Source: an uncultured virus (IMG/VR IMGVR_UViG_2061766007_001334)
Taxonomy: Duplodnaviria > Heunggongvirae > Uroviricota > Caudoviricetes
Strand: one strand, 5' to 3'
Virus record (IMG/VR): IMGVR_UViG_2061766007_001334
DNA: 49,993 nucleotides
The position numbers and the translations under genes are program-made. Below are positions 1,148-36,369 of this stretch, piece by piece. The notes beneath the pieces were generated by a model. That model was not told the origin of the DNA and ran no database searches. It saw only the letters and a program-made list of their open reading frames with translations. Position 1 is the first letter of the stretch. Every line of letters starts with the position of its first letter.

Positions 1148-2020
1148 ATGATTTATGAATTTTCGCCCATCCCCGAGGGCTTTTTCGGGGAAAGCGGCCT
1201 GACCGAAACATCGGCCAACCACATTGCCAACATCGCCAAGCTGCGGTATGACGAAATCGAGAACGACATTGCCTCTATTTCCTTCGTGAGCCACTACGCA
1301 CAGGTATTGGGTTCCGGGAATGCCCAAGGAACGCTCCGTAACGCGAAGCCGTACCAAAGGGATAAAATCGTGCAGATGCTCGATAAGGTCAGCGAATGCA
1401 AGGGTTTCATCGCCTTCCTGCGTGAAGCTATAAAGGCCCGGCAGAAGCTCATGTCCGAACTTGGCATCTTCCAGCTTCCCGAAATCCGCGATGCCGTAGC
1501 CCCGGAGAAAGACAATGTGCCCACGGCTGACGAAATCATCGCCGGTTGGAACACGAAGGAGCGCGAGCGTTACCTCTCCCTTGAGGCCCGCGCCGCAACC
1601 TATGGTCAGTTCATCCACCCGGGCGGCGCTCTCGACAAGGCTTACCGCGATGCCGTTGAAGCGGCGGGCGNNNNNNNNNNNNNNNNNNNNNNNNNNNNNN
1701 NNNNCATTACCCGCACGGTTCAGGGTGGCTCCGTCGGCGACATCCGTGCGATGATGGAATCCTTGCAGGCGGAACACCGAAAGAGCGAGGCCGAACTGAA
1801 TGGCCTGAAAAACAACATCAAGAAAGCCATCGACGATGCCAATGAAGCTGCGCTTGCGAAATTGAAGGCCGAGTCCGCCGAATGGCAGAAAAAGATGCAG
1901 GAACTGCGCATACGAGAGCAGGAAGTCATCATCGAGCGCAAGAAAGTCCTTGAGGCCCTGCGCATCGTCATTCCGAAACGATACGAAAAACTATATGAAA
2001 GCATCACAAAGAAGGACTAA
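1148..2020 (+). CDS. coiled-coil hypothetical protein (FFGESGLTETSANHIANIAK N-terminal motif); start may be 1016
   Basis: Long ORF with helical, E/K/A-rich C-terminus; one N gap. Confidence 0.75.
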   Translation: MIYEFSPIPEGFFGESGLTETSANHIANIAKLRYDEIENDIASISFVSHYAQVLGSGNAQGTLRNAKPYQRDKIVQMLDKVSECKGFIAFLREAIKARQKLMSELGIFQLPEIRDAVAPEKDNVPTADEIIAGWNTKERERYLSLEARAATYGQFIHPGGALDKAYRDAVEAAGXXXXXXXXXXXXITRTVQGGSVGDIRAMMESLQAEHRKSEAELNGLKNNIKKAIDDANEAALAKLKAESAEWQKKMQELRIREQEVIIERKKVLEALRIVIPKRYEKLYESITKKD

Positions 2021-2264
2021 CCACGGACTGAGGTCTTGACCGAAACCGTGGCCAACACTAAAGGTATCCCGTCGTTTATTTATACGCACCGCCATTTGGG
2101 GCGTACTGGGTTAAAACCCCAGAACCATCAAGCATTCATTTTTGAAGAATGAAACCAACAAATTTCTCCAGTCCGAAAACAACCGCATTGTCCTCGTCCT
2201 TGCTGGTACTGGAGGTCTTTGTCCCTGCTTTTGCCCCCGTCTGCGTGGCGGGCGACCTTTGGTG
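2021..2264 (+). ncRNA. candidate structured non-coding RNA of unknown class
   Basis: Several nested complementary segments, including a long-range stem 2056-2065/2255-2264 (see findings). Confidence 0.5.
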
Positions 2265-2281
2265 AGCCCTTCTTTTTCCTT

Positions 2282-3595
2282 ATGAAAACCGCCGAAACAC
2301 TACACACGGAACTTTACGGCCTGATCTCCGCCCTTGCGGACGAACTGTCCGATGCCCGTGCGATGAAGAATGCCAACGACCGCGTGGATGCCATAACCCT
2401 CGTGGTGCGCAAGGCTCTTCGCGCCGGTTCCCTCTGCTTCGTGGACGGCGGTCTTCATCACTTCAACGGCAACTACTATGCGCCCGTCGACAAGGGCCTT
2501 GTTTTGGCCGTTCTGGGGAACATCCTCGTTGATATGGGTGTTTCTCCCACCGATGTCCGAAAGATGGGCGAAATGCCCCTTTCTGTCATCGTAGAGAAGT
2601 CTTATCCGCGCTTCCCGTTCCTGCTCTGTTTCGACAATGGCATCCTTGATGTTCGTGGGCCTGAATTTGCGGAAGGCTTCAACCCCCGGCGCATCGTAAC
2701 CGAAAGACTCCCGTACACCTACGATCCGTCCGCATCGTGCCCCCTCTGGCTTCGTTTCTTGTCCGAAGTGCTGCCCGACGAAAGCGAGCGGCGCGTCTTG
2801 CAGGAGTTCTTCGGGATGTGCTACATCGACCGCTCGGAAATGTCCGTCGAGAAGTTCGCCATCTTGGTCGGCGGCGGCGCAAACGGCAAGAGCGTCATCT
2901 TCGAGGTCATCAAGCGCGTTGTTGGCCCGGACAATGTTTCCACCTTCGACTCCGTGCAGCTTGGCAAGGAGAATATGATCCCCTATGTCAAGGGAAAGCG
3001 CCTGAATTTCGCGCCCGATATGCGCAAATCGTCCTCCTTCGACTCTTCGCTCAAGGCCATAGCTTCCGGGCAGGATGTCACGGGGCGGCGCATCTACGGC
3101 GACGCAGAGAAGATCAAGTGCCCGCCGCTCGTCTTTGCGCTGAACGAAATGCCGCGTTTCGCGGATACATCCGACGCTTTCTTCCGCCGCCTGCTGCTCT
3201 TTTCCTTCGATGTGACCATCCCCCCGGAGAAACAAGACCGCCTGCTGGTGGAGAGAATCTGCCAGAGCGACCTCCCCGGCATCTTCAACTGGATACTCGA
3301 GGGGCGGTTGCGGCTCGTCCGCAATCACGGCCAGTTTTCGGAAAGCAGGCGNNNNNNNNNNNNCCGCGAGTCTGTTTCCCCGTCCTCTTCGCCGGTGCGT
3401 CACTATCTCGCGTCACGCGGCCTCGGCGTGTACCCCATCTATGAGGGCCAGCCGTTCACATCCATCACGCAAAGGGAGATCGTCGTCGGCCTCGGTGGTC
3501 AGCTTTCGCCCAATGCCGTTACCCGGGAGATGAACCGCTACGGCGTGTCCGCCTTCCGCAGCAAAGAACTGTTCTATCGCGTTTACCAGTTATGA
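2282..3595 (+). CDS. D5/P4-family SF3 helicase (D5_N plus ATPase), no primase domain evident
   Basis: Motifs FDNGILD, CPLWLRFLSEVLPD, Walker A GGGANGKS, AFFRRLLLFSF, LPGIFNWILEG. Confidence 0.85.
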   Translation: MKTAETLHTELYGLISALADELSDARAMKNANDRVDAITLVVRKALRAGSLCFVDGGLHHFNGNYYAPVDKGLVLAVLGNILVDMGVSPTDVRKMGEMPLSVIVEKSYPRFPFLLCFDNGILDVRGPEFAEGFNPRRIVTERLPYTYDPSASCPLWLRFLSEVLPDESERRVLQEFFGMCYIDRSEMSVEKFAILVGGGANGKSVIFEVIKRVVGPDNVSTFDSVQLGKENMIPYVKGKRLNFAPDMRKSSSFDSSLKAIASGQDVTGRRIYGDAEKIKCPPLVFALNEMPRFADTSDAFFRRLLLFSFDVTIPPEKQDRLLVERICQSDLPGIFNWILEGRLRLVRNHGQFSESRXXXXXRESVSPSSSPVRHYLASRGLGVYPIYEGQPFTSITQREIVVGLGGQLSPNAVTREMNRYGVSAFRSKELFYRVYQL

Positions 3596-34957: not shown

Positions 34958-35083
34958 ACTCCACGAACCGTTGGTTTGCCCAGAGGTACAACGTGAACAA
35001 CGCTTGGAATTTCAACGGCAACAACGGCAACCTCAACAACAACAACGTGAACAACGCGAATCAGGTGGGAGCCGTCACGATAT
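34958..35083 (+). ncRNA. DGR template repeat (TR)
   Basis: AAC-rich repeat directly upstream of the RT; homologous to both VR1 and VR2. Confidence 0.95.
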
Positions 35084-35106
35084 TACCGAAAACAGTATTT
35101 ACGCTT

Positions 35107-36369
35107 ATGACCGACGAAAGGTTCTTTTCGATTATGGTGCAGACCATGTTTAACGCTCGCAAAAACAAGCGTTACGGGCGCGATAGCGCAGATTTCGAGA
35201 GAAACTGGGCTCCGCGTCTTGTCCGCATGACGCACCAGCTACAAGAGAGAACCTTCCGCGTTGACCACAACTACGCCTTCCTTACTTCCATCCCCAAGTG
35301 GCGTGAGATTTTCGCCACGATCTTCGAGGGCCGCACGGCTGACCATCTGCTCTGCGACACCCTTGAAAAGTATGCCGCAACATGGCTCTCGCCCCGCACC
35401 TTCAACAACCGTAAGGGTATGGGTATGCAGGCGGCCATCAATCAAGTCCTCGAGGACATCTACGAAGCGACGCAGGGCTTTACCCAGCCATGCCGGATAA
35501 TCAAATGGGATTTGAGCGGATTCTTCCCGAATGCGCAGAACGACTACATAGAGCGCTGCTATCGCAATCTTATTGAGCACAACCGCGAAGCTATTGCGGC
35601 GGAATACGACGACGAAATGCCAAACTTCCTCCAATGGCTTGCGATGATCTGCGTACATGGCAACCCCGCGCAGCATTGCGAGCTTCGGACACCGAAGCGG
35701 CTATGGGGCGAGCACATCAAGCCGGACAAATCGCTCATCGGAAAGCCGCCGGGAATCGGTTGCCCGATCGGTCGTCAGGCAAGCCAGATCGGAATGGGCC
35801 TATATCTCAACGATGAAATCGTATGGCTCAACAAAGACTGCGGAATCCGCTCGACATTGTTTATGGATGACTGCGTGGAGGTAGTACCCGAATGGCAGCA
35901 CCAGTACGCGTTATCCCTGTTCCCCGAACTGCGGCGCAGGCTCGCGGCAAAGGGTATCAGGCTGAACGAACACAAGTTCTATGACCAGCCCTATTATCGC
36001 GGCTTCGAGTTTCTCGGAAGCCATATCAAGCTGAATAGGGTGCATCTCAACAACAAGACTTACGGAAGGGCGAGAATGCGCATCGGCGAACTTAACGCCC
36101 TGCCGAACAAATTAGCCTACATCGACCATTTCGTGCAGACAATGAACAGTTACATCGGTCTGCTCAAGAACAGAACGGACTACAAGCGGATGCTTGCGCT
36201 CGTCGATATGGCCGATGCCGGGTGGTGGACGATGTGCGAATGGAACGACGAAAAGAAATGCGTCGCATACCGTCCCGGATACAAACCAAATGAAAGACTC
36301 GTAACCAAATATCATCTAAAACTCAAACGAAATGACAAAAGCAGAAATTCAAGAGCTCAAAAACATTGA
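35107..36369 (+). CDS. DGR reverse transcriptase
   Basis: Motifs KWREIFA, NRKGMG, IIKWDLSGFFPN, GCPIGRQASQ (DGR-type PIG...SQ), LFMDD, GFEFLG. Confidence 0.95.
   Translation: MTDERFFSIMVQTMFNARKNKRYGRDSADFERNWAPRLVRMTHQLQERTFRVDHNYAFLTSIPKWREIFATIFEGRTADHLLCDTLEKYAATWLSPRTFNNRKGMGMQAAINQVLEDIYEATQGFTQPCRIIKWDLSGFFPNAQNDYIERCYRNLIEHNREAIAAEYDDEMPNFLQWLAMICVHGNPAQHCELRTPKRLWGEHIKPDKSLIGKPPGIGCPIGRQASQIGMGLYLNDEIVWLNKDCGIRSTLFMDDCVEVVPEWQHQYALSLFPELRRRLAAKGIRLNEHKFYDQPYYRGFEFLGSHIKLNRVHLNNKTYGRARMRIGELNALPNKLAYIDHFVQTMNSYIGLLKNRTDYKRMLALVDMADAGWWTMCEWNDEKKCVAYRPGYKPNERLVTKYHLKLKRNDKSRNSRAQKH

Follow-up and report, generated by a model that had tools for sequence, protein, structure and literature searches.

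The locus raises the question of what lies between two genes of a phage: whether the bases there form a structured RNA and, if they do, to what the RNA belongs. The window, by which we mean the whole stretch of 49,993 nucleotides that was analysed, is a tailed phage with terminase, portal, tape-measure and reverse transcriptase genes. An earlier note had pointed to a densely folded RNA at 2021..2264, directly behind a coiled-coil gene. We found an RNA element that fills the gap from the stop of this gene (290 aa; 1148-2020) to a D5_N/DUF5906 gene that starts at 2282. It spans 2012-2281 on the + strand, is about 260 nt long and free of masked N, and its true edges lie slightly outside the earlier coordinates, an outer helix and a U-rich run (2270-2279) having been added.

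1148..2020, + strand: helical/coiled-coil protein gene, 290 aa, with stop TAA at 2018-2020 and a masked N stretch inside
2012..2018, + strand: 5' arm of helix P0, AAGGACU, made of the last codons and the first stop base; pairs with 2265-2271
2021..2051, + strand: hairpin 1, with stem 2021-26/2046-51, inner stem 2032-34/2039-41 and loop CUUG at 2035-38
2056-65, 2068-73 and 2084-88, + strand: 5' arms of the closing stem P2 (2056-65) and its two extensions, from the fold, the duplex test and natural variants
2089..2165, + strand: variable central region with local hairpins at 2106-2122 and 2135-2153, from the alignment
2166..2214, + strand: helix P3 (2166-72 with 2208-14), from covariation; encloses an A-rich linker and array 1
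2186..2204, + strand: hexamer array 1, with G at 2190, 2196 and 2202 and pyrimidines between
2215..2247, + strand: hexamer array 2, with G at 2215, 2221, 2227, 2233, 2239 and 2245
2242..2271, + strand: 3' arms, namely 2242-46 and 2247-52 of the extensions, 2255-64 of P2 and 2265-71 of P0
2270..2281, + strand: U-rich run 3' of the outer helix; the start codon of the next gene is at 2282
2282..3595, + strand: D5_N/DUF5906 primase-helicase-like gene, from Pfam and PHROGs; outside the module

The pairings on which the earlier description was built were all found at their coordinates, including CCACGG (2021-26) with CCGTGG (2046-51) around GGTC-TT-GACC. The long-range stem of CACTAAAGGT (2056-65) with ACCTTTGGTG (2255-64) is present with its one G-U pair, as are its extensions CCCGTC (2068-73)/GGCGGG (2247-52) and ACGCA (2084-88)/TGCGT (2242-46) and the inner pairings CTGGG/CCCAG, TTCATT/AATGAA and CTCCAGT (2166-72)/ACTGGAG (2208-14). 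Folding beat shuffled controls: the + strand of 2021-2282 reached -81.1 kcal/mol against -67.8 +/- 4.4 kcal/mol (z -3.05), a value that none of 200 shuffles equalled, and the - strand gave z -1.73, with 7 of 200 shuffles as good. Present in the minimum-energy fold are hairpin 1 and the long-range stem together with its two extensions; CTCCAGT/ACTGGAG (P3) is absent from it and is supported by comparison across homologues.

Downstream of protein homologues, hairpin 1, P3 and the closing stem are conserved and covarying, as a true RNA of this kind had been expected to be. An alignment of eight homologues consists of conserved blocks and intervening stretches that are diverged but complementary. 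RNAalifold predicted 40 pairs from it, 31 of them with at least one compensatory change, and these pairs include the outer helix P0, in which the last codons and the stop face the bases just 5' of the U-run (columns 24-30 with 374-380, compensatory changes present). In hairpin 1 (10 pairs, 30 sequences), 85.5% of cells were paired against 56.6 +/- 2.3% after shuffling, and the covariation score was 0.673 against 0.204, which 0 of 500 shuffles reached and slid controls approached to 0.227 at most. The internal loop of this hairpin, ACUGA (2027-31) facing GAAA (2042-45), is invariant, and 10 of the 11 invariant columns across the 30 sequences lie in or adjoin the loop. For P3 (10 pairs, 24 sequences selected by hand for diversity), 88.2% of cells were paired against 59.0% after shuffling, with covariation of 0.751 against 0.212 (reached by none of 500 shuffles; maximum of the slid controls 0.144) and changes on both sides in all 10 pairs.

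The closing stem P2 has 10-15 bp, with a sequence unique to each lineage and complementarity kept. Since this makes P2 unalignable, it was tested by the duplex energy of each locus's own arms compared with arms taken from other loci. Own arms gave a mean of -31.1 kcal/mol and foreign arms -20.0 +/- 5.1 kcal/mol, and the own arm ranked first of 34 in 25 of 34 loci. The + strand gave the more stable P2 in 25 of 34 loci (Wilcoxon p 9e-5) and the more stable whole element in 26 of 35 (p 2e-4). Near-identical phages from other gut metagenomes carry the variants 2059 T>C, 2060 A>G and 2062 A>G in the 5' arm of P2, with no change listed among them in the partner arm 2255-2264. These variants turn U-G into C-G once and A-U into G-U twice and keep the pairing on the + strand; both A-U to G-U changes would be mismatches if read on the opposite strand. 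The preference for the + strand, argued earlier from G-U pairs, is thus borne out by the stability of P2 and of the whole element and by strand-specific natural variants. The conserved, structured + strand RNA is real, and its architecture is P0, hairpin 1, P2 and P3 with flanking single-stranded arrays of period 6.

The two pyrimidine tracts for which a 6-nt period had been noted proved to be exact in the window, with phased G and pyrimidines between, and common to the whole family, in which they follow G-N-Y-N-Y-Y (3 + 6 copies in the window). Across 115 distinct family sequences, the frequency of G was 0.97-1.0 in the phase columns of array 1, 0.77-0.99 in those of array 2 and at most 0.25 within or between hexamers, and bases 2 and 4 after each phased G were pyrimidines in 97-100%; these frequencies are biased towards the pattern because the alignment was profile-fitted. 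Natural variants at 2225 and 2226 are C/T swaps only, and the gap between the arrays is 18 or 19 nt across homologues. TRF reported no tandem array in 2021-2281, the 6-nt phasing being degenerate only.

Other parts of the element are less constant. The central region varies among homologues in length and sequence. T-runs occur at the site of the U-rich run in loci L084, L085, L086 and L087, so that a U-run stands 3' of the outer helix in these and in the window, where a consensus terminator scan reports none; loci of the L106 type have a tRNA-Pro in its place. In L085, a bona fide tRNA-Thr (GGU; L085:3937-4009; 70 bits, Rfam) lies within the variable region, inside the closing stem, and would, if processed, split the RNA in two. 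The most distant family members (e.g. L019:4125-4160 and L106:4025-4055) have, within the loop of P3, an extra hairpin that conserves UGAUGA/UGAAG and CUGA-like bases, has a GGAGG end and is missing from the subfamily of the window.

The linkage of the RNA to its upstream gene was followed from the protein side. With a 31-sequence protein alignment as query, 80 loci in bacterial genomes, almost all labelled Bacteroidales, and 80 in viral contigs were obtained; a locus search with a single protein as query gave none. By nhmmer with the intergenic region of the window, matching sequence was found directly 3' of the homologous stop in L081-L088. Iterated nhmmer profiles (+ strand only) detected the 3' domain, that is, P3 and the arrays, in 130 of the 160 loci, always 100-300 nt past the stop, or 300-400 nt in the longer-gene loci L155, L156 and L159, and detected the 5' hairpin in 38. 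R1, a covariance model of hairpin 1 built on 30 sequences, matched 75 loci when both strands of the 160 loci and the window (1.07 Mb) were searched. All R1 matches adjoin the stop on the strand of the gene, with no off-target match at E<=1 on either strand of the 1.07 Mb, and the sole match in the window is at 2016-2058 (50.9 bits). When the element was counted as present by R1 at E<=0.01 or by the 3' profile, at least one of its two parts was found in 143 of 160 loci (66 of 80 genomic, 77 of 80 viral). Neither part was found in the other 17, among them L001, which stops at a contig edge. Five whole carrier genomes were also scanned with R1, the best 150 of 700-1,300 first-look candidates being scored in each; three gave a single match, at the module, and the two without a match were those whose loci were without the hairpin. 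The earlier proposal that the RNA is attached to the coiled-coil gene is therefore upheld by these 143 protein-derived loci, which carry the element just past the stop.

Gene order speaks to the same point. The helicase gene is downstream in L081-L083, as in the window, and upstream of the coiled-coil gene in L084 and L085, where the RNA remains behind the coiled-coil gene despite the moved helicase gene. Genes downstream of the RNA differ widely among loci. These observations support the view that the gene and the RNA form a genetic unit. An RNA-first scan with a 16-base degenerate pattern, which was too loose, returned at least 119 loci; 4 of the 119 listed match the profile, and three of these four have the gene upstream. 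The exception, L182, has a complete element with its own compensatory P3 variant, with tRNA-Arg genes on one side and a tRNA-Pro on the other. Of the coiled-coil gene, no more than roughly the final 27 codons are left there, and the record of L182 (87.6 kb, 86% complete) holds no other copy of the protein. L182:1130-1650 represents a deletion variant of a ~90-kb phage in which the RNA and the following tRNA-Pro are intact; relative to L106 and L128, the tmRNA gene, a 131-aa ORF and nearly the whole coiled-coil gene are gone.

The upstream protein belongs to a large family. A search found 483 relatives at E<=0.001 among 3,755 candidates, with the consensus GLTxTSANHIANLAK, in Bacteroidales genomes and viral contigs, in agreement with the earlier note, which placed similar GLTxTSANHIAN proteins in phages of Bacteroidota. 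No Pfam domain was reported in the 120 relatives listed, one stray entry excepted. The protein itself gave nothing above the Pfam cut-off, only sub-threshold coiled-coil-type matches in its C-terminal part, and it matched no family of PHROGs, PADLOC or NCBIfam. PADLOC 2.0 assigned none of its families to seven family members, its sole matches being neighbouring WYL regulators, and a sequence profile against the PDB gave no usable match (best E 0.97). An AF2 model of P0001, which is 94% identical, is helical with two small sheets (pLDDT 83, pTM 0.73). Foldseek returned nothing from the PDB at E<=0.001, the ESM Atlas no usable match, and VIA wide gave a best Z of 7.8, to helical rows of unrelated proteins only. 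No RNA-binding fold was recognised, and no nuclease fold stood above the helical background, with Foldseek against the PDB or with VIA. The family is mildly acidic, with a median pI of 5.8 and a net charge of -5 (31 members).

The hosts are Bacteroidales of the cattle, goat, chicken, mouse and human gut, together with their phages. In phage contigs of 90-100 kb, the pair is located in a group of tRNA genes that also includes a tmRNA gene, with a tRNA-Pro only a few bases past the element. The tmRNA genes of two such contigs (L106:2158-2539 and L128:2160-2540) encode the tag peptides GNTSYRVAA and GNTSYRAAA, and with two tRNA-Arg genes they lie just 5' of the module. In the chromosomal loci L019, L027 and L059, the pair is located in a 2-3-kb islet between housekeeping genes; these islets show no other phage genes and no replication genes within 3 kb either side. 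A WYL/WCX regulator, drawn from several diverged regulator lineages, stands beside the gene in 15 of 80 genomic loci, as against 0 of 80 viral loci. Such regulators occur in divergent and co-directional orientations (L019:1890-2897, - strand; L059:1825-2856, - strand; L007:1187-2118, + strand), and that of L007 is split into two ORFs, an HTH followed by a WCX. WYL regulators have been reported, in the part of the source consulted, to co-localise with defence systems (PMC9122601).

The element belongs to no RNA class found in the catalogues, in accordance with the earlier impression. Rfam 15 gave no match in the whole window at gathering score, and at E<=10 the lone match in 1900-2400 was outside the element (sR17, E 1.9, 2359-2384). 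In 20 related loci, Rfam reported only tRNA, tmRNA, group I intron and pistol, and on the element itself only the inserted tRNA of L085. A blastn search of phage records gave no match. No description of the RNA was found in the literature searched; overlap in sequence with the 3,161 microbiome RNA candidates catalogued in PMC8040213 is possible, because the tables searched from that source give no sequences.

Several known systems nevertheless resemble the pair. It is like a type III toxin-antitoxin system of the ToxIN kind in joining a protein gene to an adjacent structured, repeat-bearing RNA and in a setting of the conflict kind, where phages, plasmids and chromosomal islets carry the two together. 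Type III RNA antitoxins consist of ~34-45-nt tandem repeats upstream of an endoribonuclease toxin, whereas here a single ~260-nt unit lies downstream of the gene, the repeats are of 6 nt with no longer-period array by TRF, and the protein is without a recognised nuclease fold. TIGR-Tas and box C/D systems, as far as the former are described in the part of PMC12045711 consulted, share a small helical coiled-coil protein, occurrence in phages and gut microbes, an RNA directly downstream and CUGA-type motifs in the RNA. The present protein gave no Nop-domain match in Pfam, and its match to the TasH chain (Z 6.1 over 69 residues) is within the helical background; unlike in TIGR-Tas, each locus holds a single unit of conserved architecture, with no tandem units and no variable spacers. 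The arrays are reminiscent of the RNAs of TRAP and HutP: in both, one base or triplet recurs at short, regular intervals along a single-stranded tract, and the bases that intervene are free. TRAP and HutP are oligomeric or ring proteins that bind RNA through phased short motifs. Here, by comparison, the motif is G-N-Y-N-Y-Y with period 6, and the arrays are split by a helix inside a large closed fold. The element also resembles 3'-UTR sRNAs and RNAs of phage tRNA clusters, of which T4 species 1 and 2 are stable examples: it begins where a coding region ends, a terminator-like U-run or a neighbouring tRNA may mark its 3' end, and in large phages it lies among tRNA and tmRNA genes. Its size and degree of structure far exceed those of typical 3'-UTR sRNAs; no seed region is evident in it, and across hundreds of elements it stays tied to a single gene family. 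Because the defining tests of known systems, where run, failed, we file the RNA as a new class linked to a new protein family, with a function inferred from anatomy and context alone.

We consider it about an even chance (roughly 0.5) that the RNA is the co-transcribed partner of the upstream protein in a mobile two-part module, with a physical partnership of the two as the leading reading. An RNA of ~260 nt would be made from the + strand as a 3' extension of the 1148-2020 gene, closed and protected by P0 and P2, with its 3' end set by the U-run or, in some phages, by the neighbouring tRNA. Hairpin 1 and the arrays would be displayed as recognition surfaces. A phase held so strictly at 6 nt, with the intervening bases free, suggests contact with a protein surface that is repeated or oligomeric, at ~6 nt per subunit, for which the product of the upstream gene would be the first candidate. 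Tailed phages and 2-3-kb chromosomal islets would exchange the pair as a whole. A mobile pair whose islets often carry a WYL regulator suggests a role in conflict, which may be defence, counter-defence or a protein restrained by its RNA. The predicted binding of protein to RNA is weakened by the acidic family, the lack of a recognised RNA-binding fold and the orphan RNA of L182, and the conflict role by the restriction of the WYL neighbour to a minority of loci.

If the pair is a ribonucleoprotein, it would be a new RNA-protein system of phage and host, in which RNA is recognised periodically, through the G-phased hexamer arrays, in a new way; to our knowledge, the phylum of the hosts is without classical RNA chaperones. 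Large, strongly covarying RNA classes outside all catalogues are rare, and the present one is represented by at least 115 distinct sequences, with a partner protein family outside Pfam, PHROGs, NCBIfam, PADLOC and the PDB. The family offers a covariance model, a genetic handle (gene and RNA together in 2-3-kb islets carried by cultured strains) and phased G positions that can be mutated. Cultured carriers whose chromosomal copy has both RNA parts include Prevotella sp. 885 (L027) and Muribaculaceae Isolate-036 (L015). More tentatively, and with a good deal of doubt, the pair may be a hitherto unrecognised kind of conflict module, of RNA and protein, in Bacteroidales of gut and rumen and in the phages that infect them, in which a helical protein of new fold is restrained or armed by the ~260-nt RNA encoded 3' of it. 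The G-phased hexamer arrays would then align several copies of the protein at ~6 nt per subunit, WYL regulators would switch the chromosomal copies, as they do many defence systems, and phage copies would act in exclusion or counter-defence. The orphan RNA of L182 fits an antidote able to outlive its toxin.

The alternative that survives best, which we still judge unlikely, is that the element acts purely in cis as part of the 3' UTR of the upstream gene, in mRNA stabilisation, termination or translation coupling, with no RNA acting in trans. Its start always at the stop codon, the inclusion of the last codons in P0 and the outer helix followed by a U-run in the window and L084-L087 are consistent with such a role, which also predicts the tight linkage to one gene (143 of 160 loci); translation coupling is conceivable because P0 and the base of hairpin 1 have to be unwound by a ribosome that reaches the stop. 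Yet about 260 nt with an invariant loop and phased arrays in 115 sequences exceed the needs of a terminator or stabiliser, the L106/L128 type has a tRNA-Pro directly after the element and no U-run, the next gene in the window begins only 11 nt past the outer helix, and in L182 the RNA is intact without the gene. If merely a cis element, it would be an unusually elaborate 3'-UTR structure beginning exactly at the stop codon.

The persistence of the RNA in L182 after the gene was lost, and its position within the tRNA/tmRNA gene cluster of 90-100-kb phages, would also suit an autonomous phage sRNA acting on a host factor, for example a sponge for a host single-strand RNA-binding protein with affinity for the U-rich, G-phased hexamers; the neighbouring gene would then only lend its promoter. 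This we regard as improbable to a greater degree, since the pair of RNA and gene is also found in chromosomal islets showing no other phage genes, and a linkage of 143 of 160 loci to one protein family would be unexpected. As to a sponge, GUCUUUG in the window (2215-2221) matches the binding preference of B. subtilis CspB, as given in the part of PMC1904285 consulted. The cold-shock-protein version is weak: a cold-shock domain was above the Pfam cut-off in 0 of 5 module-carrying genomes, in a search whose control, B. thetaiotaomicron, was matched.

A self-cleaving or catalytic RNA, whose cleavage would free the RNA from the mRNA just past the stop codon, is very unlikely. It is brought to mind by the invariant CUGA...GAAA of hairpin 1, which we take to resemble a hammerhead core, by the concentration of invariant columns (10 of 11 over 30 sequences) in or near this loop, and by a pistol ribozyme and a group I intron within 3 kb in the related loci L100 and L148. 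At a threshold as loose as E<=10, Rfam 15 still yielded no ribozyme family. A hammerhead core requires bases between CUGA and the inner stem and is complete on both sides of stem II; here, the required bases are missing, the inner stem coming one variable base after CUGA, and one covarying helix closes both loop strands, which makes an internal loop with no three-way junction or substrate strand. The pistol ribozyme and group I intron (L100:612-674; L148:2027-2296) lie within ~2-3 kb upstream of the module in viral contigs.

Just as unlikely is an element that acts at the level of DNA, either a replication origin whose 6-bp iterons serve the D5-like helicase or an origin of the single-strand type. 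The direct hexamer repeats do adjoin a primase-helicase-like gene in the window, but that gene is upstream in L084 and L085 and absent from most loci, the helices covary with arms 35 to ~190 nt apart, the pairing is strand-specific, and the element occurs in chromosomal islets without replication genes 3 kb either side. A leader or origin for the D5-like helicase was rejected on gene order, which varies without separating the RNA from the coiled-coil gene. Least probable of all, and rejected on starts, stops, indels and the L106-type UAA, is the mRNA of a small hydrophobic peptide of the type I toxin kind (38 aa from ATG 2149 in the window): the array frame is hydrophobic in 9 of 9 translated sequences (window, L081-L088) and the long 5'-3' closing stem is reminiscent of hok-type mRNAs, but no start or stop is shared, an ATG is in frame in only the window, L086 and L087 of the nine, the frame stays open up to the next gene in L081 and L082, the inter-array spacing of 18 or 19 nt and 1-nt indels break the frame, the conserved codon position is the third, and in the L106 type a UAA within the P3 arm ends the frame after 7 codons, L128 being open, so that the helix is kept and the frame lost, this UAA arising from the compensatory change that preserves P3 pairing.

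Phages like that of the window recur in metagenomes. Twelve studies of gut metagenomes, bovine and goat among them, gave 20 runs with at least part of the stretch; half or more of its words were found in 12 runs, two of which may be its source. One metatranscriptome contains a 155-nt contig on 2090-2234, with no contig on the flanking genes, which is not readable as absence; a contig from an RNA library gives weak support for expression because DNA may occur in such libraries.

Elsewhere in the window, an 85-aa cysteine-rich ORF without a family match (762-1016, + strand) is kept beside the module or the helicase gene in L081-L085. The reverse transcriptase gene of the late region (34993-36366, + strand; phrog_1423, E 5e-35) is possibly that of a diversity-generating retroelement. 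A 418-nt metagenome contig from run X14 matches hairpin 1 only (window 2014-2056; 4 differences in 43 nt) and has unrelated flanks, hairpin 1 being a conserved island in a different relative.
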